Assembly: GCA_947366895.1 (NCBI GenBank)
Contig: CANBBP010000001.1
Location: forward strand, 200,365 to 264,364
DNA from: an uncultured Clostridia bacterium
GTDB lineage: Bacteria > Bacillota > Clostridia > Christensenellales > UBA1242
DNA: 64,000 nucleotides
Reading direction: 5' to 3'
This document shows, one piece after another, positions 6,627 to 60,560 of the stretch (position 1 is its first letter; each line of letters opens with the position of its first letter). The notes beneath the pieces were generated by a model. The model searched no databases, was not told where the DNA came from, and saw only the letters and a list, made by a program, of their open reading frames with translations. The position numbers and the translations under genes were made by a program.

Positions 6627-6635
6627 AATTTACCT

Positions 6636-7853
6636 TTATGCTTTTGCTTTGTCATTATTTTGTTGGTTATTCTTAGAATTTTTATGCTTTTGTTTCTTAT
6701 AAAAATTACTATTTGAATTCTGATTTACATTTACTTTATTTTTATTATTATTTTCTTTATTATTTATTTGTTTTTTATTTACTTCTTTTTTTGCTTTTTC
6801 GTTATTATTTTGATGATTTTTTTTATTATTAAAAGTTATGTCTTTTTTGTTAGGATTGTTGTTCTTTTTATGTTCTTGACTTTTTTGTGAATTTAGGTTT
6901 TCATTTTGTTTTATATCGTTATTAATTTTTGCACTTTTAACTTTATCCTGCTTATCCAATAATTTATTATTTTCGCTATCTTTGATTTGTTTATTTTCCT
7001 GTGCAAAATTTTTATAGTCTTTTATGCTGGAGTTAGAATTATTGCCTTCTATACTTTGCAAGACATCTAAAGAATAGTCTTTAACGGTAAAACTTCCATC
7101 TTTAGAAGTAATTTTAACTGATGCTATTTGTTTAAGAGCATTAGTATATAAAACAACTCCTATACCATCGGGTGTTTTAATATCTTTATTTAATTTAGGC
7201 ATTTTAGGATAAACTTCACTATAATAATTATCTTCATAAGCAAGACAACACATTAGTCTACCACAAGAACCACTAATTTTAGTTGGGTTTAATGCAAGTC
7301 CTTGATATTTTGCCATCTTTATAGATACTTTTTCAAAATCTTTTAAGTGTGCTGCACAACAACATACTCTACCACAAATTCCTATTCCACCAACCATTTT
7401 TGCTTGGTCTCTAATACCAATTTGTCTTAATTCTATTCTAGATTTTAATTTTGTAGCTAATTCTTTAACTAAATCTCTAAAGTCAACCCTATCTTCAGCT
7501 ATAAAATCAATAACTACTTTTGAACCATCTAAAGAATATTCAGCATTAACAACATTCATATCTAGTTTTAATTTTGTAGCAAGAGATTTAGTTTCTTGAA
7601 TTGCTATGCGTTCTTTTTCAAGCATTTTTTCATATTGTTCTTTATCTTCATTTGTTGCAATTCTTATAACTTTTTTAAGTTCTCTATTTTCTTTAGCTGG
7701 ATTATACTCTTCAATATTATCTACTTTACCATAGCCCAGTCCCAAAGATGTTTCTACAATAACAAAATCACCCACAGTTAAATTTAAATCTTCATTTAAA
7801 AAAGAATAAGCCTTAGCCCCTATTTTAAATTTAATGCCTATTTTTTGTTGCAT
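6636..7853 (-). CDS. ricT: PSP1-domain protein RicT/YaaT with a long Lys/Asn-rich C-terminal tail
   Basis: Cys clusters CGRVCCCAAHL and CGRLMCCLAYE are typical of the YaaT/PSP1 C-terminal domain. Overlaps holB by 16 nt. The last ~140 aa are K/N-rich low complexity. Confidence 0.88.
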   Translation of the reverse strand: MQQKIGIKFKIGAKAYSFLNEDLNLTVGDFVIVETSLGLGYGKVDNIEEYNPAKENRELKKVIRIATNEDKEQYEKMLEKERIAIQETKSLATKLKLDMNVVNAEYSLDGSKVVIDFIAEDRVDFRDLVKELATKLKSRIELRQIGIRDQAKMVGGIGICGRVCCCAAHLKDFEKVSIKMAKYQGLALNPTKISGSCGRLMCCLAYEDNYYSEVYPKMPKLNKDIKTPDGIGVVLYTNALKQIASVKITSKDGSFTVKDYSLDVLQSIEGNNSNSSIKDYKNFAQENKQIKDSENNKLLDKQDKVKSAKINNDIKQNENLNSQKSQEHKKNNNPNKKDITFNNKKNHQNNNEKAKKEVNKKQINNKENNNKNKVNVNQNSNSNFYKKQKHKNSKNNQQNNDKAKA

Positions 7854-28991: not shown

Positions 28992-29363
28992 TTATTTTGC
29001 TTTTTTAGCACCATACTTAGAACGAGCTTGTTTTCTCTTTGCTACACCAGCAGCATCAAGAGTACCTCTAATAATATGGTATCTTACACCTGGTAAATCT
29101 TTAACTTTTCCACCACGAATTAAAACAACACTATGTTCTTGTAAATTATGACCTTCACCAGGAATATATGTTGTACCTTCTTGACCGTTTGATAATTTAA
29201 CCCTTGCAATTTTTCTTAAAGCAGAGTTAGGTTTTTTAGGTGAAGTTGTGGTAACTGAAAGACAAACACCTCTTTTTTGTGGATTTTGTTCCAAAATAGG
29301 TGCTTGAGATTTTCTTGTTTGTTGTGTTCTACCGTGCCTTACTAGTTGATTAATTGTAGGCAT
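28992..29363 (-). CDS. rpsL: 30S ribosomal protein S12
   Basis: MPTINQLVR start, [10 protein letters not shown] loop, 123 aa. AAGGAGGAAG RBS. Confidence 0.97.
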
Positions 29364-29934
29364 ATCTTCCTCCTTAAAATTAGGTTGATTAGTTAATTCT
29401 TAAAATTGCAACCGATAAAGAATTAACAAAAAGTTAATTTTTATTTATTTATATAAAAACTGGAATGTATTTTTATAAAAACAATAAAAACTGAACTTAT
29501 GGCAAGCAAAATGCTTGTGCTAGAATTTAATTTATTTTGCGTTCCAAACAAATAAATTTTAGTTATAAAGCAAAAAAATCCTTTAATTTTATTTAAAGAC
29601 AGCATTTAGCAATATAACAAAAATATTCTACCAAACCCAATATAAAAAGTCAATGATTATTTTTAATTTACCTTATAATTTTTAATAGATATATTTATTA
29701 AAAAAATATAAAACAAAATAAAATTTATCAAAATTTAAATATTAAAAAAAGTAAAATAAAAAAATAAAAATGAAAATAAATTTATTTTTGAGATATAATT
29801 AATAGGTATAAACACACCATATAAGAAATTTAGATTATTAAGTAAAATTATGGTAAATTCTTTTGAATTTTTTTTTAATTGTGGTAAAATTCATTTATTA
29901 AATATGTATTTATTTTAAGGAGATTCAACTAAAA

Positions 29935-31473
29935 ATGGCAAAAAAATCTAATTATGTTTTTCCGATAGAACGCAATACAGCCCTTGAAGTATTAAAGATA
30001 ATAAAAAACTTCTATTTACTTGAAGGAGCAAGTGGTGAAGAATTATTAGAAAAAAGAAAAGGTCTTTCTACAAAACTTTTATTAGGGGGGTTAGCAGAAG
30101 ATGTTTTCACACAAGAATTATTAAATGAAATTTATGCTAACATAAATAATGAAGAAGTTTTAATAAGTTTAATAAAAGATAAGTTTCAATCAGTAGACTA
30201 TGAGAGTGCATTATTTTTATTAAGATGGACAAAAGATAGTCAAAGCCCATACTACCCTCGTATGCAAGGCGACAAACCTGTTGAACAATTTAACGAAGAT
30301 TATGAATTTGCTAAAAATTTGCTTATAGCATATATCAATGACCATGGCTTAACATCAATTAAAAACCTACCTGGTAGAGTTATAAGAGTGCAAAAGGATT
30401 TAATTAAAGAAATGGCAAATGGATTTAGGTCAGTTGCTATAGATGAAGCAAGAAAAACATTAACCTCAAATCAAGAAGCACTTGTAGAACTTAGAGCATC
30501 TATTAAAGAACAAAAACAAAAAATAGCCGATTTAAAGGCAGCAAATCCTGATGCACAAACTCAAGAACTAGAATTAAAATTAAAAGAAGATAGACAATCT
30601 GCAATAGAAAAATATAAGGTAGTTAAAGGTCAAAGAAGAAGTTTAAGAGATACTCTTGAAGAAAGAGCAATTTTAAATAGAGACTTTTCTGAAGTTGTAG
30701 GTGGAAGAACTATTTCTAAAGCTCAATTTGATGCTGAACGAGAAGAACATGATGAAAAATTATCACTATTAAAAAAGGTATTGGATATTGTTAAAAAAGC
30801 TCCTAATACTTTTGCTGATATTACTCAAACAATGGCAACCGTTACACTTAATATTAAGGGCAAATTCAATGAAAAAGAAATTAAAGAACTTTTAGGTGAA
30901 GATACTGAAGATAATACTTATACATCCCCTACTCAAAATCAATATGTTCAAAATGATGAAATAGAAAATAATTTAGAAAACAATCAGGATTATACATCTA
31001 ATGGAAATTATATAAATGACAATAATGATACAAATCAAGAACAAATAAATAATAATTCTGATATTCAAGAAGCAAACACATCAAATGAAGTTACTAATGC
31101 TATTCAAACTGAAGCATTAGATAATACAACAACTACTAACAATATGGTTGACAATAATTCTGATAGTAACACCGACAACATAACAAGTACTACAACTACT
31201 GATACTTCAGATAATACTGGAGATAATGGACAAGAAATGTTTAATCAGATTTATAATGAAGCCTTAGAAGAAACCGAATCACAAGAACAACAAAATCAAG
31301 AAAATAACATACAAAATGAATATAATCAACAACAAAATTTTCAGCAAGTTGAACAACAACCTACTGAACAAATAAATCAAACTATTCAAAATAATATTCC
31401 AAATGCACAATATCAACAAACTATAGTTCCTAATGCTACATCTAATAATGATGATACAACAAATAATAACTAA
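29935..31473 (+). CDS. hypothetical coiled-coil protein with a ~190-aa Gln/Asn/Thr-rich tail
   Basis: ORF track, 512 aa. AAGGAG RBS. The central K/E heptad-like stretch (LVELRASIKEQKQKIADLKA...) suggests a coiled coil. The C-terminus is Q/N/T/D low complexity. No family recognised. Confidence 0.7.
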   Translation: MAKKSNYVFPIERNTALEVLKIIKNFYLLEGASGEELLEKRKGLSTKLLLGGLAEDVFTQELLNEIYANINNEEVLISLIKDKFQSVDYESALFLLRWTKDSQSPYYPRMQGDKPVEQFNEDYEFAKNLLIAYINDHGLTSIKNLPGRVIRVQKDLIKEMANGFRSVAIDEARKTLTSNQEALVELRASIKEQKQKIADLKAANPDAQTQELELKLKEDRQSAIEKYKVVKGQRRSLRDTLEERAILNRDFSEVVGGRTISKAQFDAEREEHDEKLSLLKKVLDIVKKAPNTFADITQTMATVTLNIKGKFNEKEIKELLGEDTEDNTYTSPTQNQYVQNDEIENNLENNQDYTSNGNYINDNNDTNQEQINNNSDIQEANTSNEVTNAIQTEALDNTTTTNNMVDNNSDSNTDNITSTTTTDTSDNTGDNGQEMFNQIYNEALEETESQEQQNQENNIQNEYNQQQNFQQVEQQPTEQINQTIQNNIPNAQYQQTIVPNATSNNDDTTNNN

Positions 31474-31497
31474 TTTAAAATAAGGAGAGATATAAAT

Positions 31498-31731
31498 ATG
31501 GAAGAATTAACTGCAGAAGAAATCTTCGAAAAAGAATATGAAGATGTAATGTTAGCAAATGAACAAGAACAAAATGAATTTGAAGCATTCTATTCTAAAA
31601 ATGAAGAAGATTATAAAAGAAATGTTTTAGAAACTATAGAGGATTATTGTAATGATTTAGATAGATTATATAGGTCAGATGATAAAAAATTAGATGATCT
31701 ACTTGCTAAAATTAATAAAAGAATAGGTTAA
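31498..31731 (+). CDS. hypothetical small acidic protein
   Basis: ORF track, 77 aa. AAGGAGAG RBS. It starts 24 nt after the preceding stop, so it is likely co-transcribed. A bidirectional terminator follows. Confidence 0.65.
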   Translation: MEELTAEEIFEKEYEDVMLANEQEQNEFEAFYSKNEEDYKRNVLETIEDYCNDLDRLYRSDDKKLDDLLAKINKRIG

Positions 31732-31753
31732 ATAATTAAATTTGAAAAAAATA

Positions 31754-31782
31754 AAAAGCACTAATTAATTTAGTGCTTTTTT
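31754..31782. terminator. bidirectional terminator between the 77-aa ORF and the HicB-like gene
   Basis: 10-bp stem AAAAGCACTA/TAGTGCTTTT with a 7-nt loop. A-run and T-run flanks. Confidence 0.65.
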
Positions 31783-31819
31783 ATATATATTTTTTTGTTA
31801 TTTGATAAAGAAAATTTAA

Positions 31820-32107
31820 TTAATCTTCTTCACCTTTTTTAGGATTTTTAACCTCTGCATCTATTAATAATACGATGTCATTTTTATGTATTTCTCTAGC
31901 TTCTAAATAAGTACGAGGTTTTTCTTGTACTTGCCCAAACATTTTTATCGATAATCTACAAAAATCTTTTAAATATTTTTTTGCAGTCCAATAAGCTTCT
32001 TCAATGGTTTTACCTAAACAATAAACTTGAACATCATCAAATGCTACTATATAATTATCATTTTCTTCATCTCTATAAAAAGTTGCAGGAAAAATATATT
32101 GCTCCAT
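31820..32107 (-). CDS. HicB-like antitoxin-fold protein (orphan; no HicA partner seen)
   Basis: YIFPATFYRDEENDNYIVAFDDVQVYCLGKTIEEAYWTAKKYLKDF follows the HicB N-terminal pattern (YxxPaxF..e.ggY.v.fpD..g..t.G.t.eEA...a.e.L). 95 aa. No RHH/HTH tail. Confidence 0.6.
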   Translation of the reverse strand: MEQYIFPATFYRDEENDNYIVAFDDVQVYCLGKTIEEAYWTAKKYLKDFCRLSIKMFGQVQEKPRTYLEAREIHKNDIVLLIDAEVKNPKKGEED

Positions 32108-32203
32108 AGCCTAAACACTCTCCAATATAATCTTATGTCAATCATTTTAACATAAAAATAAATTCATGTAAAACAATTTTATATAAAAATTACTACAATA
32201 ATA

Positions 32204-33106
32204 TTAATTTAATGCTCCAGACATAATTCTAAATTTAGAATTATTATTCCATATTTCCAATATTTTATCAAAGTTTCTATCTGGATCTAACAATAAGTTT
32301 GCTAATTCATCCAATTCCTTATACTCTTCTTCTGATAATTCAAAATTCTTTTCTTTTATAAATTTTGGTAAATGAAGAAAGATTGTTTCATTATTCATAA
32401 GACAATGAAAATCATAAAACAACGAACGCAAACTTGCTTTTATCCCAAATACTGGCGGAGCTGATGAATAAATAATTTCATCCTCTTTATATTTACCCTG
32501 TCTTATGCCTAAATATGCCTCTGCACCAAAAATAAATTTATCTCTAGGAATATCATTAATATCAAAATTTAATTCATGATCTGGACAATGTTCATCAGCA
32601 TCAACTAATATCCATCTATTTTTATTTTCATCAAAATATTCTGTTATCCAATGGTCATAATTTTTTCCATCAGTTTTAATATATGTTCCATAACCACTTC
32701 TTACTCTTGCAGAATAACCCTTTGCCTTTAGAATACTTGTCAATAAAATAGCTTGTCCTCTACAAGTAATATGAATTTTATCTTCAGCCTTCCTATTTAT
32801 ATTATAATTAATATCTTTCCTTAACAATTCATTTAACATGGCTGAAGCAGTAGGAAATAAATCATCTTCATAATTTAATCTTGTAATTGGAACTTTTGTC
32901 ATGTCTCCCCAAAAACACTTATTTTGTTTTCTGATTTCAGAATTTTTATAAGCAATTGGGTGAATTATTTGCTTTCTTTGGAGAATACATAATTCATCAA
33001 TATCATCAGTTAATTTTTTTGCAAAATAACTATACAAACCTAAATGGGTATAAATACTTGTTTGCTTGTAAAAATCTTTAATTTTTTTATTCACCACATT
33101 AATCAT
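32204..33106 (-). CDS. transglutaminase-like superfamily Cys protease-fold protein
   Basis: Candidate Cys-His-Asp triad in canonical order and spacing: ITCRGQAILLTSILKAKGYSARVRSGY ... DHWITEYF ... RWILVDAD. 300 aa. Confidence 0.7.
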   Translation of the reverse strand: MINVVNKKIKDFYKQTSIYTHLGLYSYFAKKLTDDIDELCILQRKQIIHPIAYKNSEIRKQNKCFWGDMTKVPITRLNYEDDLFPTASAMLNELLRKDINYNINRKAEDKIHITCRGQAILLTSILKAKGYSARVRSGYGTYIKTDGKNYDHWITEYFDENKNRWILVDADEHCPDHELNFDINDIPRDKFIFGAEAYLGIRQGKYKEDEIIYSSAPPVFGIKASLRSLFYDFHCLMNNETIFLHLPKFIKEKNFELSEEEYKELDELANLLLDPDRNFDKILEIWNNNSKFRIMSGALN

Positions 33107-33335
33107 ATTTTCTCCTAAGTATTGCTTGTTTTATCTAAAACTTTATAGCAAATTAAATTTTTAACTTTGTAATCTTCGCATGAAAAATAAAAATTAATAT
33201 TATTTTTTATTTATAAACCTTAATAAATAATAATAGTAATTTTACTATATATTTATATATTATAAAAAATTAATTTTTATGAATTGTTTGATATTTTTTA
33301 TTAAAACTTATTATTTAAAATAAAGCCAAAAATAC

Positions 33336-33365
33336 AAAAAACACCCAAAAATTTAGGTGTTTTTT
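33336..33365 (-). terminator. terminator after the 102-aa ORF
   Basis: AACACC/GGTGTT core stem extended by A/T pairs, with a 10-nt loop. T-rich tail on the minus strand. Confidence 0.5.
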
Positions 33366-33377
33366 ATACTATTTTTG

Positions 33378-33686
33378 TTAACAAAAAGCAGGTTCCATTC
33401 CCCCATCCCCTTCCTGCAAAGCAGTGAATGTAGCTTCTGAAGTGTTTTGTTTTTCTGATAATAAACTTATACTTTCTTCTTCTCTAGAATGTAAAATTTC
33501 TTGTAATCTATTAAAAGCATCAGGGTCACCAAAGCAACCAGTACCAAATTCAACAGGCTCAACACATGTAAATTCTTGTACACTAGGAGCTTGAGTATTT
33601 GCTGCCGCAACCTTAAATTTTTCTAAATCAAAACCCATAGGATTAATTACTAATTTATTACTTTCATCAATATTGATAGCCTTCAT
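33378..33686 (-). CDS. small acidic Cys-containing protein (102 aa), unknown function
   Basis: The ORF track starts at 33758, but that ATG lies inside a TTGACA-17-TGaTAAACT promoter. ATG 33686 is preceded by GAGGAGG. The sequence is MKAINIDES...TALQEGDGGMEPAFC with Cys41, Cys51 and a terminal Cys102. A terminator hairpin lies downstream. Confidence 0.6.
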   Translation of the reverse strand: MKAINIDESNKLVINPMGFDLEKFKVAAANTQAPSVQEFTCVEPVEFGTGCFGDPDAFNRLQEILHSREEESISLLSEKQNTSEATFTALQEGDGGMEPAFC

Positions 33687-33729
33687 TGTATTATACCTCC
33701 TCGTAGTTTTTATCTTTACTGACACTAAA

Positions 33730-33758
33730 AGTTTATCATAATAAATACTTTTTGTCAA
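33730..33758 (-). promoter_or_regulatory. strong candidate promoter for the 102-aa ORF
   Basis: Minus strand: TTGACA (33758-33753), 17 nt with a TG at the extended -10 position, TAAACT (33735-33730). Confidence 0.55.
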
Positions 33759-33852
33759 TAGAAGTTTACTATTAAATAAACTTCACCATTAAAAAATTAC
33801 ATAAACACCAATAATATTTTTAACAAAAAACAAACTACAAAAACATAAAATA

Positions 33853-33885
33853 ATGGCAGTTAGAATTTGATTATCTAACTACCAT
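33853..33885 (-). terminator. terminator after rpoC
   Basis: 12-bp stem ATGGCAGTTAGA/TCTAACTACCAT (11/12 paired) with a 9-nt loop. On the minus strand it is followed by TATTTTATGTTTTTG. Confidence 0.6.
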
Positions 33886-34036
33886 TAGTATAGCATAATT
33901 TAAATATTTAAGCAAGTGACATTTGATTAATTTTGAATGTTTTATACAAAATATACAAAGAAAAATATTTATTAAAATTTATATTTTATTTAAAATAATC
34001 GTTATTAAGACTATAAAATATTTAATAACTTATAAA

Positions 34037-37000
34037 TTATACCATAGGATTAACTTCTTGATTTTCTTTTTCTTGCCATGCTTTTGAAATAGATGGATAA
34101 CTATCTCTATATTGTCTCATACCAGTTCCAGCAGGTATTAGTTTTCCTATCATAACATTTTCTTTTAATCCTAATAAATTATCAACCTTACCCTTAATAG
34201 CAGCTTCTGTTAATACACTTGAAGTTTCTTGGAAGGATGCAGCAGATAAGAATGATTCTGTAGATAAAGAAGCTTTTGTTATGCCTAATAAAATTCTCTT
34301 TGCTGTTGCTGGTCTACCACCATTCATTAATATTTCATTATTAATTTCTTCATATTGTTGTAAATCTAAAATATTTCCTGGAAGTAAATCAGAATCACCC
34401 GGTTCTTCAATTTTAACTTTTCTTAACATTTGGCGAATAATAATCTCAACGTGTTTAGCATTTATTCTAACATCTTGTAAACGATATACACCTAGAACTT
34501 CTTTAAGTAAATACTCTTGAACTCCTTTAAGACCAATAACCCTTAAAATATCGTTAGGATAAATTGAACCTGATGTTAAGCATTGACCTACCTCTACTAC
34601 ATCACCAGTTTTAACAGCTAAAACTGCTTTGTTTTTTGGAGGGGTCATATATTCTACATCGCCTTCACTTGTTGAAGAAACAGTAATTTTATATCTTTCT
34701 CCAGATTCTTCAACTTTAACTTTACCTGCAACTTCAGATATAATTGCTTCGCCTTTAGGTCTACGAGCTTCAAAAATTTCTTCTACACGTGGAAGACCTT
34801 TTGTAATATCAGCTTCGGCAGTAACACCACCAGTGTGGAAAGTTCTCATTGTAAGCTGAGTACCAGGTTCACCAATACTTTGTGCAGCAATTACACCAAC
34901 AGCTTCACCAACATTGACCATTTGATTACCAGCCATATTTCTACCATAACATTTAGCACATACACCATGTTTTGATTTACAAGTAAGTAATGTACGAATA
35001 TTAACATGAGTAATACCACAATCAACTATTGCTTTTGCTTGAGTAGGAGTAATCATTTCATTTGATTTTACTATTAGTTCACCAGTCTTAGGATTAATAA
35101 TCTCATCAACTGCTACTCTACCTGAAATTCTATCTTCAAGTTTTTCTACAACTGTTTTATCTTCAATAAGGTCACTTACAACCATTCCTTTTGGTTTTTC
35201 ACCTAAAGTTGCAAAGCAATCTTCTTCATTAACAACAACTTCTTGAGCAACATCAACAAGTCTTCTTGTTAAATAACCTGAGTCAGCAGTTTTAAGAGCT
35301 GTATCAGCAAGACCTTTACGACCACCACGAGAAGATAAGAAATAGTCAATAGGAGTTAACCCTGTTCTAAAACATGATTTAACAGGAATATCAATTTTAA
35401 TACCTGATGCACTAGCCATAACACCACGCATTCCACATAACTGGTTAATTTGTCCTGGGTTACCACGAGCTCCGGAAACAGCCATCATTTTAACAGGATT
35501 TAACTTATCTAAACTATCCATAACAGCTTGTTTAACTTTTTCTGTTGTTTCATTCCAAATAGAAATATTTTTTGAAATTTTTTCATCAAAAGCAATAAGT
35601 CCACGGCGGTAAGCTTTTTCATTTTCTAAAACTTTTGCATCTGCTTCTGCAACTAATTCTTTCTTTTCTTTTGGTTCTTTCATATCAAAAACATTGATAG
35701 TTAAAGCACCAATTGTTGAATATTTATATCCTAATTCTTTAACTTTATCAAGCATTATAACTGTTGGAGTTGAACCTAAAGTATTAAATGTTTGGAAAAC
35801 AATTTTACCTAATAACTTTTTATCTACAGTTCCTTCAACTTCGTATCTTAAAGCATTTTCTTTCTTAGATCTATCAATAAATCCGATATTTTGAGGGATA
35901 CAACGATTAAATAAAATTCTACCGACAGTTGTACTTACTCTACCAGTAATTTCTTCTCCATTAAATTCTACAGTTCTTCTAACAGTAATTTTAGATTGAA
36001 GTTCTATATTTTTTGTTTGATAAGCCATAATTGCTTCATCTTCATCTTTAAAGTTTGCACCTTCATTTAAAGCATTTGGTTTATCAATTGTCATATAATA
36101 ACAACCTATAACAATATCTTGTGCAGGAGTCATAACAGGTTGACCATCTGCAGGTTTTAAAACATTGTTTGAAGAAAGCATAATCATTCTTGCTTCTGCT
36201 CTTGCTTCAAGAGAAAGAGGAACGTGAACAGGCATTTGGTCACCATCGAAGTCTGCGTTAAAGCCTACGCAAACAAGCGGATGTAATCTAATAGCTCTAC
36301 CTTCACATAATACTGGTTCAAAAGCTTGAATACCTAATCTATGCAAAGTAGGAGCACGGTTTAATAATACAGGATGGTCTTTAATAACTTCATCTAATAC
36401 ATCCCAAACAATTGGTTTTTCTCTTTCAATAATTCTTTTTGCACTTTTTATGTTATGAGATTCATTCATCTCAACAAGTCTCTTCATAATAAATGGTTTA
36501 AATAATTCAAGAGCCATTTCTTTTGGTAAGCCACATTGATAAATTTTAAGTTCTGGGCCAACAACAATAACGGAACGACCTGAATAGTCTACCCTCTTAC
36601 CTAACAAGTTTTGACGGAAACGACCTTGTTTACCTCTTAACATTGCTGTTAAACTCTTTAAATCTCTTGCCTTAGGTCCTTGAACTGCTTTACCTCTTTT
36701 TCCATTTTCAATTAAAGCATCAACAGATTCCTGTAACATACGTTTTTCATTTCTAATGATAACTTCAGGAGCACCTAATTCTATTAACTTTTTAAGACGA
36801 TTATTACGATTAATAACTCTACGATATAAATCATTTAAATCACTAGTAGCAAATCTTCCTCCATCAAGTTGAACCATAGGTCTTAAATCTGGTGGTAAAA
36901 CAGGAATAACATCCATTACCATCCATTCAGGTTTATTGCCACTTTTAATAAAATCATCAACTATTTCTATTCTTTTAATAGCTTTTAGTTTCTTTTGACC

Positions 37001-37600
37001 TTTACTTGTTTTAACTATTTCTTTAAGTTCTGCATAATCTTTTTGAAGGTCAATTTCAGTTAGAAGTTGTTTAATAGCTTCAGCACCCATACCAGCCTTA
37101 AAAGAATTTTCGCCATACATATCAATAGCATCACGATATTCTTTATCGCTTATAATTTGTTTATATGTGAAAGGAGTATTTTTAGGGTCTAAAACAATAT
37201 AATTAACATAATATAAAACTTGTTCTAGAGCTTTTGGAGTAATATCTAATATAACACCTATACGAGAAGGAATGCCTCTAAAAAACCAAATATGACTTAC
37301 TGGAGTAGCAAGTTCAATATGCCCCATTCTTTCACGTCTTACTTTAGAGTGAGTTACCTCAACACCACATTTATCGCAGATAACACCTTTATAGCGAATC
37401 CTTTTATATTTTCCGCAATGACACTCCCAGTTTTTTCTAGGTCCAAAAATGCGTTCACAAAAAAGGCCATCTCTCTCTGGTTTTAATGTCCTATAATTTA
37501 TAGTTTCTGGTTTTGTTACTTCGCCATAACTCCATTCCCTAATTTTTTCTGGGGAAGCAATACCAATACGCATAGAGTCAAAATTGTTTAGTTCAAACAT
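34037..37600 (-). CDS. rpoC: DNA-directed RNA polymerase subunit beta prime
   Basis: Zn-finger [23 protein letters not shown] and catalytic NADFDGDQM. 1187 aa. Confidence 0.98.
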
Positions 37601-42611: not shown

Positions 42612-45600
42612 TTAAGTTACTTGAATTAATTCTACAAAACAATATAAAATTTTGTTTGCATTAATGTCATTATCAATTAAAGCAGAACTAATTACACTTT
42701 TTAAATTAAATGTATTAGATGTTATAGAAACCTTTTTGTAGAAATAGTCTCCGTTTACATCTCGACCTGCAATAACAAGTTCATCACCTTGAACGTTGGA
42801 GCCATTGGCATAACCTAAAGTTACAGAACTAAAATCACGAACAGTTATTCCATCTTCAGATAATTCTTTATTTACATTAACCCCATCTGCAGAAATAACA
42901 ATAAGATTAGAGCCATTTCCTTTAATTAAAATAGAATTACTAATTAGTTCACCATTTTTCCAAATTAAAGGTTTAAATCCGTTTGAAGCAGAAATATTTG
43001 AAAATTGGGAAGAATAAGCTCTATTAATTTCTTCTTCAGGGTTTTCTGCAATACCGCTTGTTTCATAATAGCCTATAGCATCACAAATATAATTTTGACT
43101 ATTATATATTAGATATTCATCTTTACTAAAGCCTCTACCACGAGAGAAACCTATAATACCGCCAACATGAGCATTGTTTTCGTACTTACTATTAGCAGTC
43201 ATTCTACCATTATTAACACAACGAGATAAAATACCATTAGTTTCAATCATAGCAACTATTCCGCCTAGTCTACTAATTATATGATTATCAAAATCCTGAC
43301 AAGGTTCTAGGTATCCATTAAAGTAAGCATTTGAAATATAAGAATTATTCATATAACCTACAATTCCACCTACAAAATCATATTGATTTGTAAATGTCTT
43401 AACAATTCCACTGCTTTTAACACTTTCAAACTTAACTGTTTCAAGTGCATATCCAACAACACCACCTGCATAACTTCTTGAAGCATTTGATTTTGTTACA
43501 CCTGCAATATTAACATCACTAAAAGCACATTCAATTGTGTTTGGAATATTGTCTATATTAATATTGCCATCATCATTAATAGTTTTCCCTGCAACATAAC
43601 CTGCCACGCCACCTATATAAACATTTCCACCTTCTGAGAATGCACCTAAACCTATCTTTGATTTATCATCACTATCAATAACTCCTTCCGGTTTGCCTTC
43701 GGCATTTCGTTTTTCAACAACTTGATTATAATAAGGTTTTATATCTATATATCTTGCATATTTTGTAGATGTTGAACCTTCTTTTTTGTTATATGTTTTT
43801 TCTACATATACATTATTTAATATATAATCTTGACCTGTCATAGAGCCTATAGCTCCACCAACAAATATAGCAGAATTTGAAGTTACTGATATTGCTGTAG
43901 AAACATAAACATTTTCAATAGAAGTGTTAATACCTCTACCTACTATTGCTCCTGCATAAACATTAGTTTGATTACTACTTGAAACAATTTTAATAAATGA
44001 ATCAGTAATATCACCATTTACAATTTTTGCACCATTAGTATAACCAAATAATCCACCATAATTAAGCACTGAACTATCTATTGTTAAGCCCTTAATTCTA
44101 TGGCCATTCATATTAAATATTCCTTGGAATTGATATACTGAAGTTGAGCCTATAGGTGTCCAATATTTTCCGCTTAAATCTAAATCATTTAATAAAATAA
44201 ATTCAGCATTTGCAGTTAATAAACTTCCATTATTTACATTTGAAGATACCCATGCAAGTTCTTCTTCAGTAGCAACAAGATAATAAGTTTTTTTATAGCC
44301 TATACTATCGGAATTTTTATCTTTATAAAGACTTACCATCGTTTCAGTTATAATGCCATCATCTATATATCTTTGAACATAAATTGCGATATCTTCAACA
44401 TTTTCATAATTAATAGCAACAAGTGCTTCGCTTTCAGTGTTTTTCCAGTTGCCACCTAATCCACGAATTGAAGGATAATAAACTCCCTTAACAGGCTTGT
44501 TTAATGTATATTCATTCTCTTGAGTCCAAATTGAACTAAGATTATTATTATCATCAATCAAGTTTTCAAAAAGAGGTTTGTCTTCTTCAGCATTTCCTGT
44601 TGGTAAAATAATTCGTAAATATTCACCATTTTCCTTTACGCAATAAATTCTAGGATCTATTTCAGCAGTAGCACCAGAACCATCTACAAAATTAGATGCT
44701 AAATTAAATACATTTATTAATGAACAATTTCCTTTTGCAATACCTGCAATCACATTTCCGCAATCTCTAGGATTGCTACCTTCATATAAGGCAGTAGTAA
44801 AGATATTACCATTAACATTATTATAACTGTTACTAATTGAAGAATTTTCTAAATTACCTACTAGTCCACCAGTTGCCACTACTTCACTTGATACTCCTGT
44901 TGTTTTAATAGGTAGATTATTAAAACTATAATATATACCTTTTGTTATGTCATCAGTTTCAACCGAAGAACAATTTAAAGCATTATAAACAATTCCACCT
45001 GCTCCTTTGATACCAGAAATAACAGCATCTAAACTTTCTTCTGCTCCATCGGTATATATTCTTGAAATTCTAGTATTTTTAGCTTGATAAACAAGACCTG
45101 AAGCATAAGAGACATTTTGAACGATAGTATTTTCTAATCCAACATCATTAATAGTTGCATTTTCACAAACACCAAATAAGCCACCGAATTCTTTATTTTC
45201 TATAAATGCTCCATCTATAGTTAAATTTCTAATAACATATCCATTACCATCAAATGTACCTTTAAAAGGATTGTCAAGAGTACCTATAGGTGTCCAATAT
45301 CTATTTGATAAATCAATAAAGTTAATTAAACGAATAGTAATGTTTGTAGTATCTAATTCACCTGAATTTATTGCACTTGATAGATATGCTAACTCTTCTG
45401 CAGATTTAACAACAAAACTTCCATTTTCTTGTGCAACTTCTTCCTGTTTATCACTCCACATTGAAGAAGCATTATTATCTTTTAATGAAGGATACCATGT
45501 ATCATAGAATTGTTGCCAAACACCTTCGCCTGTTTCTTCATTAACAAAATTCCATTCGCTATCATAAGTATTTTTATTTTTTAAACTAGTTATTAATTTA

Positions 45601-48600
45601 GGATAATTAGAATCTCCATCCTCAGTATAAAAATCTTTACCTTCTTCATCAGTTTTATTTTCATCAAGTAAACAATAAGCTTTATAAATAGTATTACCAC
45701 TATAAGCAGAATCTCTTAAATAATAGTTTGATGTAAATTGCATATTAAAGTTTGCATAACCTGCTATTGCTCCTAATCCATTATAGAATTTTTCAATAGC
45801 AACAATACTTATGTATCCTACATTTAAACTTGTATTAACAGATAATTTATTTTCGGTTCTAATATTTCTAAATATAATTTCTCTACCTGAAGAAACATCT
45901 TCATAATAAGAAGCCCCAACAATACCACCAACGTATAACCAACTGCTACTTGTAACTTGAATATCACCTGAATTATAGCAATCGTTAATTTCTCTACTTC
46001 CTCTAGTAATATTTGTTCCGCCTGCAACACCACCTACTATAACACTTGCAGTTCTTCTAGTAATTGTATAAACCTCTATATTATTTGCATTATAACTACG
46101 TTCTATATTAGCACTTGTAGAACCTACTACACCACCAATTGATATAAATGAACTGGAAGTTGTACTTAGGTTGAAGTCTATTTTACCTTCATTTCCACAA
46201 TTTATAATATCATCTTTTGCCCAACCCACAATTCCACCAACAAAGGCCGAAGCAGTATTTATGTTACTTAAACCAACACTATATATATTGTTATATACAA
46301 TACTTATAGTTGCATAATTTTTGGAATCTACAACTTGAGTTTGTTTTTGAGTTATACCTACTATTCCACCGACATTTAATAAATGAGCATTAGAATTTAT
46401 GGTTATATTTCCATAATTATTTAAGTTAATAAAGTTATTACCAATTAAATCTATATCACCAACAATTCCAGAAACATTAAGTTCAATTTTAATAGAACTT
46501 GAAGAATAGTTAGTACTTGTATTTACTGCACTAATATCTCCAAAGTTAGTTAAACCACTAAACATATAATTAGTAACATCACTTTCGATATGTCCTATTA
46601 CTCCACCTAAATTAATTTGTTGATTTTGATTAAAATCAATATTTAAGTGGTCAATATCACCATAGTTTACACTATCTATAATATTTATAGTTTGAACCCT
46701 ATTTGTAGTAATTATTTTACCTATTATTCCACCGCCAGTTTCTTCAGCAGTTACATTATTACGATTTAGCACATTTTCAACGTTTGTTGTTCCTTCTGCT
46801 ATTGCAATAATTCCACCTGCAGTTACACCATAAATATCTCCACCGAAAGTTGATAAATTAATAATAGATGCATTTCTTACATATCCAAATAATCCGCCTA
46901 TTGAACCTGTTAATTCGTTAGATATTTCATTAACTGTTGTATATTTAATAGTGTGACCATTACCATTGAAAGTTCCTTCAAATGCATTTTCTTCACTACC
47001 AATAGGTACCCAGAACTTACCACTTAAATCAACATCATTTTCTAGAGTAATAGTTTTACCAACAAACCCATTACCAGCATTAACCATATTAGCAAACATG
47101 GCAAGTTGTTCAGGAGTTGATATTGTTAAATTGCCTGAATTAATTTCTTCTTCAGTCCACTCTTCACTTGCAAAAGTATTCCATAAATAAACATCAGCAT
47201 ATTCTAAGTTTATTAAATATTTATCAGCTTCATCGTATGCGGCATTTTTAAAGAAATTATCAGGTACTTTCCAATATCCATTACCAATAAAACTATTATA
47301 AATAACTTGTTTACTACTTAAGTCTAAAAGATAAGTATAATTTAAATTACTACCATTTGGAGTTCTTACACTAATATAATTTTTAGATGTATCGTATTCA
47401 TAGGTAATATCTATTGAAGAAACTTCCCAACATCTTTGAGTGTTTTCAGTATTATCTAAATGTAATTCTTTTTGTGTAACATTTATTGATAGTTTTATTA
47501 TTCTAGTATTGTTTGGTAAAGAAAAATCAATATTGCCATAAACCATACGATAATCAATAGTATCTGCATTACCTGTTGATTCAGTAATATCACCTAAATT
47601 GTTTATTTCTAAACCATTTATATAAACACTTGTAATATTTTGTAAATCTTCAAAACTCTTAAACGTATACTCATTATTTACTTTACTACCTGTAGAACGA
47701 GAAGTATTTATTACAACATCGTTTATACCATTTGTAGGATATTGAGTAGTTTTTACAAACTTTTGTAATCTTCTATAACGAATATAATATAAATCTCTAT
47801 TTTCTTGTTCATAATAAATTTTAAATTGAGATTCACTTCCTATTTTTTCAAAAACACCAATATCATTTTTAATATAAATTATTCCAAAATGTTGAATATA
47901 TTCATCATAGTCTTTTGGTATATTGCTAATAGTCCACTCTATACCATTATCTATCCAGAAAGTATCTGTAAAATCTATTTTAACATAAAAGTCTTCAGGA
48001 TTTTCAACATTCCATTTTATCAAATCAAAAATATAATCAACGCAAGGAGTTCCTATTTTATCGCCACCCTTATTTTCAGTTTCCTTCATTGTATAACTTA
48101 TATTAGTGTTAGTATCTTCATAATAAGCTTCTCTAGTTGAATATGGGAAAACTGCTTGACTTCCATCAGTACCTGTTAAAATACTTTTAATACCAGTTCT
48201 AACATCTGCAATAATATCCATTGTATTTGAAAAATATGCAACTTTAAGATATTTTTGGGGAGTTACAGCATTAGTTGAAGTATAAAGAGTGTTTGTATAA
48301 AAATTAAAATTATCAAATTCAATAAAATTATCTTTTGAAGCTGAATTTGCAATTAAACCTATAAATCCACCAATAGGATTATTATTAATTAATAAATATT
48401 CATATTGCCAATAATCAATAGCTAACCAGTTATTTGCAGCTACGCAATTTCTAATTATGGTTTTTTCTTCACCATCAACTGAAGTTGTTGCAATGGCTTC
48501 TTCACTATAACCCGATTTTATAACAAGCATGCTATCATTAGCTGTTCCTATAAGTCCACCTATAATGCCTTTAGACATTACAGAACCTGTAGCAATAACA

Positions 48601-51600
48601 TTTTCTAATGTGCCTGTAATCATTCTTCCTACGGCACCACCAGAAATTTTAGTATTATTATCTCTTACATCAACTGTAGAAATTGAATTGGATAATAATC
48701 CACCATTGTTAAGTCCTACAAGGCCACCACTTGCAACAGCACTATCGCTACCTGCACTAGAACGGAATAATAAATTTTCAATTAAATTTGATGAAGCAAC
48801 TTTAACTGATGAATAACTTTCTAATTCTCTATAACTTACTGAACTACTATAAATCTTGCCTCTATTTTCGCCAACAAGACCACCTGCATAAACACTGGCT
48901 TCAATATAATTATTTGGAGTATTTGCAATGTCGACATTAGCATAATTTACTATACTATCTCTACCAACAAGACCAAATACCATACCAACAACACCACCAG
49001 TAATATGAACATTACCATAGGTGTGAATATTACTTGCGTTATATTTTCGTTGAGTAGAATCATCTATAACTTCGTTACAATCTAATATACCCGCTACTCC
49101 GCCTGCATAAGCAATATTTTTTATATCTTTATTTTCAGTATAAAGAACATTTTTTACATTTCCACTTGATACATCTTTTGTAGCATTAACATTTGCAGAA
49201 ACAGTAATATCTTTAATTATAACGTCACCAAGAATAATACCAGCAAGGCCACCAGCCACATTTTTGCCTTGAATATAAGCATTCCTTGAATCCATACCAT
49301 TAATATTAATATTGTTTAGTATAAGTTTGGTGCCTGTATTTTTTGTTTTATCTGTATGAATTATACCAGCTAATGCTCCTACTCTTTCATGTGTATTAGA
49401 TAAAACTTCCACAATATTTAAAGAAAGGTTTGAAATAACAGTATTAAAGTTTTTAATATCAGGTACAGTACTTATTGAACTAAATAATCCAAAGGCTTCT
49501 TGGTCATCTACAATAAAATCATCACCTGGAGTTATATTTCCATTTAGGTAATTTACATAAGAAATTGATATTTCATTTAATGACATGTAATTTCCTTGTA
49601 AGCAACCTTGGAAATTTGAATAAACTGTTTTAGGTAAGAAATATCCTTCTTTACCAATAAAGTCAATATCTTTAATAATTCTATAAAAATTACCTGCTGT
49701 ATTTTCTTTTAAGTAATATTCAAAAGACTTATAATCGTTAATAATTTTAGGATTTGTTCTTGCACCTTTAGGAGCAGTATTTTGAGAACTACTACTATAA
49801 TAATAAGATGCGTTTTCCAACTCTTTATAATCTATATGACTAATAATGCCTTTATCATTAAACTCTAATTCAATAGTATCATTTGCTCTAAAATTATTAT
49901 CTTCAATATGAGATGAGCCTTCTTGATAACTAACATCTAACACTTCAGTACCATATTGAGCTGAAATAAGTTTTTTACTTTTTATTTCACCATTTTCTAA
50001 ATCTATTTTAAATACAATGGTTATAGCCTCATTTTTTTCGGTTGTATTTGCTTTTTCTATTGTTTCGCTATTTTCATTAGAACCTTTTTTCTTAGAGAAA
50101 TAATAAGTAAAAGTATTTTTTCTATTATCTTGAATTGTATAGAAAATCAATTCATTTTCTGTTAAATATGGAATATCTAAGCCTTTTGGATTTGAATAAT
50201 AATTTGTTCTTATTCTATCTAAACCAATATTAACCGGAGTTGAAGAAACAAAATTAACAACTTGTTTTTCATCATAATATGTGTATATATCTTTTTTGTA
50301 ATTTTTGGTTTTACCTAAGTATTCACATTGACTAATAGTTTTAATTAAAGTTGAAACTATAACAGGCTTACCTTCTATAATAACCCATGTATATCCATCA
50401 ACATAACTATAAGTTTCTTCACTATCAGCATAAGTTAAATCATCATTATAAACAAGAGATAAATCAAAACTTACAAAATTAGTATGAGTAGAAAATTCAT
50501 CAAGAGTTAATTTTTTTGCTGTCTTTTGTTCATTTGTACTTGCCCATTGAACATTAGTCCAAGTTTCACCAGTCAAGTAATAGCAATTATTTAACACCCC
50601 ATTTATGGTTATTTTATAATCTGCAGAATTAGTACCAGCAAATGGTGAAGCAATTCTACTATTATCCGAACTTGATTTGTAACTTATTGAATAACATCTT
50701 GAGATTTCACTTGATGAAGTTTCTCCATACACAAAGCCAGCTAAGGTACTTGATGATTGTAAAGATATGTTTGAATAACAATCAGAAATTTTTCCACTAT
50801 TATTATAAGCAAAGCCACCCACATCACCTTTTGCAACTATACCTAAACCTGTATTTCTTATATCATTGTCATTATTTGCCCTATAACCTTGAACATAGCA
50901 CTCATTTATTGTAGCACTATTGTTATAAACAAAGCCTGCAGTAACATCACTTGATTCATTTATTATAGAACTTTCATTTAAGAAAGTAGAAACTATCTTT
51001 CCGTTATTAATTCCAACTACACCGCCTGTTATACCATAACAAGAAAAATCAAAATTAAATATAGAAGAATTTGTAATATATCCTGTAACACTATTTGTAG
51101 CAACTAAGCCACCATTTAAAGCTTGAGGTATTGTTCCTACATTAACATTATTATTAAGAACAATATTTAATTTTCCAGTTACTTTACAATTTGTTAAAAC
51201 ACCATCATTTGTCCCCGCTATTCCTCCAAATGTCATTGATTTTACATACAATTGTGTAACATTTAAAGGTGAGGAACTAGGCACTAGTCTTGTTGCTCCA
51301 TTTGTATTTATAATCCTATCGGTGAAATAAACTGTAACATTGCATAGTAAGGATTTTTCACTAACATTATCAAATAATCCTAATACACATTTATCATCAT
51401 AGCTACTATCATATCCAAAACTTGTAATATAGATATTATAATTATTACCATCTAAACTAGCAATAGCAGTTGATATAGGTGTGTAGTTGCTTAACTCGAT
51501 ATCGTTTACTAATCTATAATCAAAGCCTTCTTGCATATTTAAAAATTCTTCAGGAGTAGAAATAGGAATAGCATTTATTAAATCTGATTTATAAATAAAG

Positions 51601-54600
51601 TTTAAAATAAAATTATCTTCAAATTTAAATGTAGTATCAAAGGTTGAATCTATCATTGAAATAGAATAATGATAAACATTTGGTATACCATTAACTTCTA
51701 CTAACTTATTACCGCCACCCTCATTGTTTGTATAAGAAATGTTAGTACGCAATGAAATTTTAGAATTTCTATCTATTTGATAGCCATACACAGCAATATA
51801 TTCATTATATTGTTCTACACCAAAAGTAGAATTGTTGTAATCTTTGCTAACTTGTAAGTAACCTGAATCATTATTATTTGAATCGTAGAACCATACACCA
51901 GAAACTTTAGTTGAAGCACTATTTTCTTTATAGTTATAACTTGCCTTTGCTATAGCATTTGATAACTGAATAAAATATCTTGAGAAGTATCTTTCAATTT
52001 CATAACCGCAAGCTGTAAGATATTTATATAACATATCACTTGCATCGTTAGTTTCTCCATGATATTTATACCATCTTGAATACCAGTTATCGCCATCTGC
52101 TGTATTTACTAAAGATTCATCATATAATACATCTAAATTTACTAATAATGGAGTTGTTGTAGACATAGGAATTGTCATATAACCGTTTGATACATTCTGA
52201 GCTGTTACACCAGTTACAGTAAATAAAGTAACCACAAAAGTTTGACTAAATGAATATGTCCTTTCATTATCTCTTATAGTAGCAGTTATAGTAAAATGCT
52301 TTCCTATACAATTAGTAGAAAGAACATTGTCAGCCGACATATTACCATCATATTTAAATACTCTTAATTCGTATTCACCTTCATCATTTTTATAAGGTGT
52401 TAAAACATCTTTTTCATTTTGAGTTAAAATATGGTCTTTAGAAGAAACATTCCATGTAATATCCCCTTCATAATTAACTAAATTTATTTTCATATTTTGT
52501 TTAGTATTTATAGGTAGATAATATAAATCATTAGAACCTTTTAATTTTTCATCAAAAGTGTAAGTAATTGAAGGTTGAACAATAGTTGTAAAATTATAAG
52601 TGTATGTTTCAATTATTGTGCCATCACGATTTAAGAATTCTACATAAAAAGTAAAATTAGTTTTATCAGGAACATCAGTACCAGCAAGCAAACTAAAGAA
52701 ATATATTTTGCTATAAGAATAGGTACCATTTGTATTTAATAAGTAACTATCTTGACCACTTGACTTTTCAACTTTCATAATATCAGACATGTCAAGGATA
52801 GAACCTGAATCTGGATAATTTGTTAAGAATTGACCAGATGCTCCAGTAATATCATAACTAAGTTGAGTTACCAAGAGAGGATATGAACTAGGATTTCTAT
52901 AATAAACCCTCATACTATTATAATTACTAAAATATGGATAAACTTCTATAGAAAGCACTCCAACCTGACCATTATAAATAACGGAATTTTTATTTGGATT
53001 TTGTGGGAAATCGCTAATCTTAGTATACATAGTGCCATAAACTTGATTAATTTTATCCTGACTAACGATAACAAACTTTAATGAAGTTTTTATTGTTGGG
53101 TCGCTAACAGCCCAAAATTCAAACATATATAATAAATCATTTTCCACAGCATTAAGTTTATCTTTATAATTAATAGTATATGTAGCAGAGATACTTTCTA
53201 GAGTTTTATTTGTATCATCAGTGTAATTATAAGTAATGTTACTTTTTACTATAGATAATAAATTATCAGCATTTGCTATTGAAAAATTATCTAAAATTTC
53301 ATCAAACTCATAATCTGTAAATAATGTTACAGTAAAAGTATGAGTTTCTAACTGAGAAATTTCCACTGATTGAGAAACATCAATATTATTTTCTAAAATA
53401 ATATCTGTAGCCCCTTTAATTAAAGAAAGGGTGAAGCTACCAGAAAATTTTTCTAACATTATTGTAGACTCTATAGTATTAAAAATAGATTTTATATATG
53501 GTATATATTCTATCTTTAATTTATGATTTTCTGCCATTGCAATTAAAGGAGTTATAACAGGATTTCTACCGCTTGATATATCAACATACCAGTATTCACC
53601 ATCATATAGCCAAGTATCACCATTAAATTTAAATAAACTATTAATATCTACTTCATCTAAGTCTTCTAAAATTTTATCTAAACTAGTAATGCCATTATTA
53701 GCATCTTCTTCACTAACTCCAGAAGCAACTCTAAATCTTATTCCCACATCATTGGAAGATTTTAATTTAGCATCTTTTTCATGCTCTAAGTCACGATAAT
53801 AATCTACTTCAACAAATAAAGTTTGAGTACGAGATTTTAATAATTCAATATCTCTTCCATTTAAACTAATGTTAGCGGAAATATTGTCATAAACATTAAC
53901 TTCTCTAACTCCGTATTTAACAACAATAAAAATTTCAGCTTTATAATTTGCATTTAACTTAGAAGATATTGTTAATGTAACCTTACCCTCACCCATTATT
54001 TTTAATGTTCCATTAGAGTTAATAGATATAACCTTAGAATTACTTGTTGCGATATCAAGCCTTGCACTTTTACTTGTGGTAGGTAAAACATACAAATTAA
54101 TAAAATCTAAGAAACTAACAATATTAAGTTTATTAATATCTTCAGCAAGATATCTAGTTAAATAATCATAGTTAAAGAACATAATTAAGGAATTGTCTTT
54201 ATCTCTTATATAACTAATAAACTCTTTTTCATCACTTTTAACAATAGCAGAAACATTAATAGGAGTGGTTGCAAATAAAGGTTCTATTCTACCAGAAGAA
54301 AAGGTTATTGTTAAATAAGGTAATCCGCTGTTTGTTCTTGAATCAATCTCCCAGCCATTAGTTGCAGTAAAATTAGAAATAATTTGTTCTGCTGTTATGT
54401 TTTGATTAGGACTAATACTATCCCTAATAGTAACAGCATTTGCTTTTGTGTCACTAGCAATATAGTAATAATAACCTTGAATATTAGGATTAATTAAATT
54501 ATGACTTATTCCATTATTTGCATAGCCATATCCTATAACAAATACATCACTTATATTCATGGTTGAGTTATTAGGTTGTAGTATAAATAAATCGGCTGTT

Positions 54601-60013: not shown

Positions 60014-60560
60014 TTAATTTCTTTTCCAGTTCATTAAACCATAACCCTTAATAGTTTTATCATTAACACTATAGGATTTGTCATAGCAATAGCCTGGATA
60101 AGCCCAGCCTTTCCCTGGTTGGCTTGTGTTTCCTTCAATTGTGTATACTCTACCATTTTCAACCTTAACGACAATACCTACATGGGAAGCCGTAGCCCCT
60201 GCTATAGTAGGCATAAAGAATATAGTATCGCCAGGTGCAACATATTTATAATGCTCACGAGTAACAACTTGACCAGCAGGAGCAAAGTAACTCTTCCAAA
60301 GATGTCCTGCCCCTAACGTATTGCCAGGTGTAGAATTAGCCTTTTGAGCTTTAATTTCAGGGACCCCATTATAACACCATGAAACAAAGGCTGCACACCA
60401 ATATTGATATTCATTTCCGAAAACTCTCCAAAATTTTTCTCCACCCTTATTACCAATATACTTTCTAGCTTCAGCAACAACAGCTGGATTACCATATCTT
60501 ATGCCTTCTCCAGTTTCTTCATCAACTTCATCAAATGTAACATTTGCCATTGAAGATGGT
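60014..60560 (-). other. CHAP domain of the upstream giant ORF
   Basis: Candidate nucleophile Cys codon TGT at 60395-60397 (WCAAFVSW). Candidate His codon at 60182-60184 (SHVGIV). Polar third residue in TIEGN (Glu codon 60134-60136). A Gly-rich linker GYGGEEGNGGEIGGSTGSGS precedes the domain. Confidence 0.75.

Follow-up and report, generated by a model that had tools for sequence, protein, structure and literature searches.

We analyzed a 64,000-nucleotide (nt) stretch of DNA (the window) from an uncultured Clostridia bacterium and, within it, the interval that separates rpsL (28992..29363, minus strand) from rpoC (34037..37600, minus strand). An earlier note on this DNA had described the interval as a five-gene island splitting an otherwise invariant junction. 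The coordinates of rpoC and rpsL and the 4,673-nt length of the gap proved exact, and the five open reading frames (ORFs) reported there in two orientations (A512 and B77 on the plus strand; C95, D300, and E on the minus strand) are all real genes, since each has a ribosome-binding (Shine-Dalgarno) sequence and is conserved in other genomes. Comparison with related loci indicates that the interval combines, as a mosaic, units of different ages that are transcribed independently, and is not a functional five-gene island; we give this reading a probability of about 0.78. The genes and signals of the interval, by position in the window (aa, amino acids), are:

29364..29618, minus strand: structured 5′ leader of rpsL, ~260 nt, recognized by conservation and covarying stems
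29625..29653, minus strand: promoter of the rpsL operon (TTGACT, 17 nt, TAGAAT, TG before), conserved across species
29935..31473, plus strand: A512, an orphan of 512 aa on the strand opposite to the flanking operons
31498..31731, plus strand: B77, an acidic orphan of 77 aa, the second gene of the A512-B77 pair
31753..31781, both strands: bidirectional terminator serving C95 (minus) and B77 (plus); −12.8 and −13.2 kcal/mol, z about −4.9
31820..32107, minus strand: C95, 95 aa, with the fold of the HicB N-terminal domain only (AlphaFold2 and Foldseek)
32144..32172, minus strand: C95 promoter of the extended −10 type (TTTACA, 17 nt, TG-n-TAAAAT), from a consensus scan and an alignment of five species
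32193..33330, minus strand: indel of ~1.1 kb carrying D300, bordered by the E terminator and the C95 promoter; its E-side edge (~33330) is approximate and was set at the foot of the E terminator
32204..33106, minus strand: D300, 300 aa, transglutaminase-like (Pfam Transglut_core and a conserved triad)
33331..33370, minus strand: intrinsic terminator of E; −20.2 kcal/mol, z −5.9
33378..33686, minus strand: gene E, 102 aa, very acidic, its ATG preceded by a GAGGAGG Shine-Dalgarno sequence
33730..33758, minus strand: promoter-like site of E (TTGACA, 17 nt, TAAACT, TG before), from the consensus scan only
33851..33887, minus strand: intrinsic terminator of rpoC, a 14-bp hairpin with a U-rich tail; −18.3 kcal/mol, z −4.2, 0 of 200 shuffles as good

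The first ~290 nt of the gap (29364..29653) hold the rpsL promoter and leader; they belong to the rpsL operon and are part of no island. The earlier note had credited each gene with promoter-like and terminator-like signals of its own. This was borne out for the three terminators, which fold beyond shuffled sequences, and for the C95 and rpsL promoters, which are conserved, but not for the number of promoter-like sites, 45 against 45.3 expected in shuffled sequence. For promoters, our argument uses only these two that are conserved across species. The short 5′ untranslated region and ribosome-binding site that follow the C95 promoter are also conserved in the five species, and in one relative, L029, C95 has a separate terminator-like hairpin. 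Gene E begins at the ATG at 33686, not at the mechanically called TTG at 33758, as its 102-aa product has an exact match in the protein collection. As the note had stated, none of the five products resembles a ribosomal or RNA polymerase gene product: Pfam and NCBIfam gave no housekeeping annotation for any of them, and none matches PF01248 (L7Ae/YbxF).

The junction in related genomes

We retrieved the loci of relatives with the C-terminal 400 residues of RpoC, which gave 29 species-representative loci. These are metagenome-assembled genomes (MAGs) labelled Clostridia, Christensenella, or Christensenellales, with RpoC C-termini 64–95% identical to that of the window. Further loci came from exact-protein look-ups, from one metagenome scan with a narrow C95 alignment (A2; 10 metagenome loci), and from the Logan contigs L049 and L050. 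In total, the comparison by tblastn and ORF maps covered ~40 related loci, drawn from metagenomes and Christensenellales-like MAGs. One contig, L001, is identical to the window.

In the family baseline, rpoC and its terminator are followed by E, a second terminator, C95 with its own conserved promoter, a third terminator, and then the rpsL promoter, a ~260-nt leader, and rpsL-rpsG-fusA-tuf. Such junctions are 1.2–1.6 kb long (examples are L005, L007, L029, L056, and L058), and that of the window is 3 kb longer. C95 lies 3′ of rpoC in 18 loci (49–97% identity) and within ~1.3 kb upstream of rpsL in ~15. Most relatives have E and C95 as the sole genes of the five at the junction, with A512, B77, and D300 not there. 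Among the loci compared, E and C95 were present in nearly all relatives, A512-B77 in three lineages, and D300 in one, the window and the identical contig L001. The L049 and L050 contigs carry A512, B77, C95, and E without D300, and L049 otherwise matches the window gene for gene. Thus, the five genes that had been taken for one unit have at least three separate histories. The proposal that accessory DNA was inserted here holds for D300, found only in this genome, and for A512-B77, found only in the nearest relatives, but not for E and C95, which are family-wide residents. The earlier note had named two outcomes that would count against an island, conservation of the five genes at this junction throughout the clade and their independent scattering. 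We found part of each: E and C95 are resident, and the others do not travel together.

The rpoC-rpsL junction is not invariant in this order, and the link is often broken. In L019–L030 (RpoC 64–71%), there is no rpsL in the sequence downstream of rpoC, which extends to 10 kb in several of these loci. In L008 (5371-7831) and L010 (9292-11709), rpoC and an E-like ORF run directly into an AI-2E transporter gene, followed by a class I (Trp/Tyr-type) tRNA synthetase gene; in the window, both genes come after tuf. The entire C95-to-tuf block is gone from this site in L008 and L010, having been excised or moved, and the break falls at the same seam between E and C95 as the D300 insertion in the window. 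Conversely, L043 carries C95-rpsL-rpsG-fusA-tuf with no rpoC upstream, and L055 likewise has C95 without rpoC upstream. When other lineages have rearranged, E has remained with rpoC and C95 with the str operon. The E terminator and the C95 promoter border a natural seam.

Three loci with RpoC 78–82% identical to that of the window (L013, 8206-9356; L016, 12491-13568; L017, 13468-14473) carry a 185–190-aa gene (X190) and an L7Ae/ybxF-like gene between C95 and rpsL, the latter directly before rpsL. The L7Ae-family gene matches PF01248 in L013 and L017; X190 matches no Pfam family. By tblastn, neither gene has a remnant in the window, and the window lineage lost both. Together with the loci that lack rpsL downstream of rpoC and those that lack the str block, these arrangements overturn the claim of an otherwise invariant junction. 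We considered a conserved pair of C95 and a 190-aa gene, since a gene of that length also comes after P0171, a more distant homolog of C95, but the two 190-aa proteins are not homologous. L017 carries an extra gene for a DUF6273 lipoprotein-like protein (333 aa) between rpoC and a small ORF at the E position.

In the Bacillus subtilis-type order, the genes run rpoB-rpoC-ybxF(rplGB, L7Ae family)-rpsL-rpsG-fusA-tufA. The window resembles this order in that rpoBC is followed by small genes on the same strand and then by the str operon, and L013, L016, and L017 keep an L7Ae-family gene at the ybxF position. Unlike the Bacillus subtilis interval, that of the window has no L7Ae gene or remnant and instead holds E, C95, and later insertions, and here rpoC has its own terminator and rpsL its own promoter. 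Upstream, rpoB is preceded not by rplJ-rplL but by a 5637-aa ORF with a GLUG motif (42612-59525, minus strand) and a 1307-aa CHAP-domain protein (60014-63937, minus strand); thus, the supercluster usually formed by ribosomal and RNA polymerase genes is fragmented in this organism. No indexed paper names ybxF, rpsL, and rpoC together.

Residents and insertions

Gene E is native to the junction, an inherited resident; in most family members, E follows rpoC before any other gene. Its positional homologs are 58% (L018), 52% (L049), 51% (L052), and 40% (L003) identical, and homology is also clear in L002 and L029. An E profile reaches L005 and L006 at E ~1e-7 and L008–L010 marginally; further out, only the position is kept. 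The gene evolves fast, as its identity is 58% where that of rpoC is 95%. Conserved features are an MKxINID N-terminus, an EPxxFGxGCFGxPxAFNxLQ core, and a C-terminal Cys, the last present in five of seven aligned close members (for example EPAFC, EPMFC, and EPTC). The family has an acidic region between the FGxGCFG motif and the C-terminus, and total length varies from 87 to 136 aa. E matched nothing in Pfam, NCBIfam, or PADLOC, and HicA_toxin did not match even at E<=1.

C95 is likewise native to the junction and is linked to the str operon. Its AlphaFold2 model (predicted local distance difference test score, pLDDT, 90) consists of an N-terminal domain and a short charged tail only. The top Foldseek match was 6g1c, the HicB N-terminal domain from Burkholderia pseudomallei (E 4.7e-5, TM score 0.75–0.84; root-mean-square deviation 2.2 A over 87 residues), and other HicB structures also matched, as did, partially and with low probability, double-stranded RNA-binding domains. 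Profile scores were low (PHD_like, 19.3 bits against a cut-off of 27; the HicB-like phrog_497, E 9.6e-5), with no PF15919 match at E<=1 and no Pfam HicB threshold reached. Distant members of the C95 family (P0169, P0171, P0190, and P0230) do pass the PF15919 (HicB_lk_antitox) threshold. The family is small, with 96 representatives among 1.84 billion proteins, most of them matching over the full length (~90 residues), and its alignment has a mean column identity of 66%. Homologs lie directly upstream of rpsL in L043/L044 (57%) and L045/L046 (36%), while others at <=42% identity do not adjoin rpsL. In the window, L049, and L018, C95 and rpsL are separated by 2.4 kb to >8 kb.

The C95 model superposes on the N-terminal domain of HicB antitoxins of type II HicAB systems (6g1c, 6g1n, and 6g26 from Burkholderia pseudomallei; 5yrz; 4p78), and distant family members pass the Pfam antitoxin threshold. 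Unlike these antitoxins, C95 lacks a C-terminal DNA-binding domain (ribbon-helix-helix or helix-turn-helix; solved HicB proteins with that domain have 132–150 residues), has no adjacent hicA, is transcribed alone, is inherited vertically beside a housekeeping operon, and itself falls under the Pfam HicB threshold. Its neighbors E, D300, and B77 gave no HicA_toxin match, and tblastn detected no HicA-like sequence in the window or the junction loci, a weak test made with four query sequences. C95 is also short and built of a single HicB-fold domain, as are the stand-alone HicB-like/UPF0150 proteins (PF21748; 2yzt from Thermus thermophilus), but its structural match to 2yzt is weak (E 0.85) and its family is small and distinct. 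C95 is thus probably a solitary HicB-fold protein and not a classical antitoxin. That such a family has been kept near rpsL across deep divergence is a lead to a role of the HicB fold outside toxin-antitoxin systems.

A512 and B77 are a separate gain, confined to the nearest relatives. The pair occupies the same slot, bounded by the C95 terminator and the rpsL promoter, in the same opposing orientation in L018 (RpoC 95%) and L049/L050 (93.5%), and all loci that have it share at least 93% identity with the window at the rpoC C-terminus. A512 homologs form five clusters among 5.8 billion proteins (75–79% identity), and B77 was found only with A512 (78% in L018, 76% in L049/L050). As read from its sequence, A512 would be globular in its N-terminal part and charged and probably helical in the middle, ending in a low-complexity tail rich in N, Q, and T. 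Neither protein matched Pfam, NCBIfam, or PADLOC families, and PHROG matches of A512, B77, and E were at most weak and to families of unknown function. A phage or viral origin of A512 was rejected, with no match in phages and no relative in viral contigs; the PDB gave no match either. This second slot holds a 156-aa ORF on the opposite strand in L002. In L018 (12295-18302, plus strand), a surface protein of >2000 aa lies beyond A504, with a hydrophobic segment at the N-terminus and a membrane anchor at the C-terminus. The ORF extends past the end of the locus, and rpsL is >10 kb from rpoC there, which again suggests that large inserts can be accommodated in this slot. GC and AT skew change sign across A512-B77 (window positions 29750-31250), which fits their being the only plus-strand genes of the region and is no pointer to foreign composition.

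D300 is a recent single-gene acquisition, separate from the other genes. DNA homology between L049 and the window breaks at 32192, just past the C95 promoter, and picks up again inside E at 33476; at the position of D300, relatives have an unrelated spacer of 200–560 nt. The protein scored 23.5 bits against Pfam Transglut_core (PF01841), a small margin over the cut-off of 23, with the match covering the C-terminal half of the model. In the family alignment (14 sequences), Cys115, His152, and Asp169 are invariant and, from their order and motif context, are a putative catalytic triad. From these features, D300 is probably an enzyme of the transglutaminase-like superfamily, which includes PNGase, the pseudomurein endoisopeptidases PeiW and PeiP, and arylamine N-acetyltransferases. 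Foldseek returned the same proteins, all of one superfamily, in weak matches (E>=0.04, TM<=0.2) obtained with a poor AlphaFold2 model (pLDDT 54). No solved relative was found in the PDB by profile or sequence searches. More than 1000 homologs exist. The nearest that is not the protein itself is 77% identical, and one near homolog is in a low-GC Bacilli MAG.

Elsewhere, D300 homologs come with a partner. In all nine other loci examined (L031–L035 and L061–L064; D300 homolog at ~6001-6894 or equivalent), the homolog overlaps an upstream gene for a 188-aa nitroreductase by 8–11 nt. The pair adjoins a serine recombinase and Mob_Pre in L035 and conjugation ATPases in L061, and in L031–L034 it lies downstream of rplJ-rplL, at the edge of another ribosomal gene cluster. 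At the DNA level, the window is 79–80% identical to these homologs within coding sequence only, and no trace of the nitroreductase gene remains in it. D300 is probably one half of a widespread nitroreductase and transglutaminase-like module, copied here without its partner. The overlapping gene pair recurs in gut bacteria, twice near mobile-element genes. A 162-aa gene, an acetyltransferase in L035, often precedes it. We rejected a phage, plasmid, or viral origin of D300: there was no phage match and none in viral contigs, and plasmid matches were distant (~28%) chromosomal-type homologs annotated as transglutaminase domain-containing.

Composition, which the earlier note had suggested profiling against the flanks, gave no sign of foreign origin, nor was there a mobile-element signature. 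GC content at third codon positions in the five genes (0.09–0.16) is as elsewhere in the window, their codon usage diverges to an extent also seen in other window genes, and the 4-mer distance of the 4.7-kb block ranks 14 of 60 equal-sized windows. The window as a whole has a GC content of 28%, and the genomes with the closest D300 homologs are equally AT-rich. The note's statement that no integrase or flanking direct repeats are visible was upheld, and there was no tRNA gene or Rfam match either: Pfam, NCBIfam, and PHROG revealed no integrase, recombinase, or transposase among the five products; the only candidates for flanking direct (att) repeats were imperfect, AT-rich, and unconvincing; there is no tRNA gene in the window; and Rfam gave no match even at E<=1. 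None of the five products matched a PADLOC model at E<=0.1. The interval is like a genomic island in that some close relatives have D300 and A512-B77 and others lack them. It is unlike genomic islands and integrative elements in lacking an integrase, att repeats, a tRNA target, and compositional deviation; in addition, two of its five genes are conserved residents, and the block is not gained or lost together.

Explanations of the interval

A mosaic that accommodates these data would have formed in layers. E and C95 are old inherited residents of the junction, A512-B77 would have been added first, to the second slot, in the lineage of the nearest relatives, and D300, which sits at the E|C95 seam as a 1.1-kb single-gene indel in this genome only, would have been added later. 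Because promoters and terminators of their own delimit the housekeeping operons, the spacers between them may be transcriptionally insulated and tolerate insertion, and different relatives would therefore carry different cargo at the same two slots. Recombination could then add and remove genes locally in such insulated spacers, making them a hotspot that needs no mobile element of its own.

Several points weigh against this account. Gain and loss were told apart by parsimony, with rpoC identity as a stand-in for the species tree. Relatives were compared by loci, such that D300 may have come from another place in the same genome instead of by horizontal transfer, and more distant relatives may carry A512-B77 at other sites. 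The composition test has little power for a transfer of D300, since the likely donors have the same low GC content. The fold proposed for D300 depends on a marginal Pfam score and a conserved triad, and the permissive insulated spacer is a mechanism that we infer from sequence features. Finally, C95 has been retained next to rpsL in deeply diverged lineages, a hint that the two are functionally tied, for which a hotspot by itself offers no explanation.

Insertion of a single foreign island, perhaps exploiting the high local transcription, would account for a gap 3–4 times the family baseline in which three of five genes are absent from most relatives and none has a housekeeping annotation. This reading is refuted by the comparison, since part of the set resides here clade-wide and the remainder does not travel together, and we consider it extremely improbable. 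E and C95 occupy the junction throughout the family, L049 and L050 have the other four genes without D300, and the composition is ordinary, with no integrase, repeats, or tRNA gene. That the genes benefit from high local transcription is also unlikely, as strong terminators insulate each unit from rpoBC transcription and A512-B77 opposes the flanking operons.

A different explanation takes E and C95 for a degenerate HicA/HicB-like pair, or C95 for an orphan antitoxin against a toxin encoded elsewhere, kept by addiction. In HicAB systems, hicA precedes hicB, and HicA toxins are basic RNA-binding proteins. The C95 fold is that of the toxin-binding N-terminal domain of HicB, its distant relatives and weak PHROG match point the same way, and the small gene E lies upstream on the same strand, as hicA would. 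However, E is strongly acidic and matches no HicA_toxin profile, a strong terminator separates it from C95, which has its own conserved promoter, and each gene occurs alone (C95 without E in L043; E without C95 in L008 and L010). D300 was inserted between them without the loss of either, C95 has no counterpart of the C-terminal DNA-binding domain of solved HicB proteins (~135–150 residues), and the search for HicA-like sequence, weak as it was, found none in the window or the junction loci. The HicAB reading is therefore very unlikely.

C95, and possibly E, might instead be lineage-specific housekeeping factors, C95 acting on the translation apparatus or the rpsL leader and E on RNA polymerase. 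Part of the gap would then be an unrecognized extension of the rpoBC and str operons, which is compatible with a mosaic for the other three genes. We regard this as unlikely. C95 homologs as low as 36% in identity still immediately precede rpsL, including where linkage to rpoC is lost. C95 is under clear purifying selection (the 66% mean column identity), with a conserved promoter; E stays by rpoC where the str block is gone. The low-probability partial matches of C95 to double-stranded RNA-binding domains would fit, as would the relation of the HicB N-terminal domain to RNase H-like folds and the conserved structured leader between C95 and rpsL. On the other hand, C95 is transcribed alone with a terminator after it and is not in the rpsL transcript, the gap to rpsL reaches from 2.4 kb to >8 kb in the three lineages with A512-B77, and distant members (<=42% identity) are not beside rpsL. 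The linkage could be mere inherited gene order within one bacterial order, and E evolves very fast. The more specific proposal, that C95 is not an antitoxin but a partner of the str operon (through the ribosome or the leader RNA) and E the matching partner of RNA polymerase, is unlikely as well, and we offer it as speculation. If true, C95 and E would be two unrecognized small housekeeping factors flanking the operon seam in Christensenellales-like gut bacteria.

On the mosaic reading, the junction is no novel system but an ordinary hotspot where genes are gained and lost. A long gap between conserved operons, read in a single genome, resembles an island; relatives reveal a layered history of old lineage-specific residents and recent unrelated insertions at transcriptionally insulated seams. 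The by-products of the comparison (the C95-rpsL linkage, the rpsL leader, and the nitroreductase module) are of modest wider interest and change no major question.

The rpsL leader RNA

The rpsL leader could be an undescribed ribosomal-protein leader RNA, possibly autoregulatory. Six species share an unvarying 28-nt hairpin block (29529-29556), which across 11 leaders changes only in ways that keep G-U pairing. The leader also contains a CATTCCA box and, just 5′ of the ribosome-binding site (~29392-29427), a hairpin with a conserved GGUUGCAA-type loop. The stem of this hairpin (10–15 bp) differs in sequence among lineages and is paired in all 11 leaders, a strong covariation. The leader had no Rfam match at E<=1, and a published set of 20 new ribosomal-leader candidates contains no motif of the rpsL/S12 operon (PMC7247131).

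We rejected the possibility that the leader is a decayed L7Ae/ybxF gene. Smith-Waterman alignments with the ybxF regions of L013, L016, and L017 scored no better than shuffled sequences, and tblastn revealed no remnant. A mechanically called 54-aa ORF inside the leader (29441..29605) is probably not a gene. Short motifs of the leader recur in the same order in L013.

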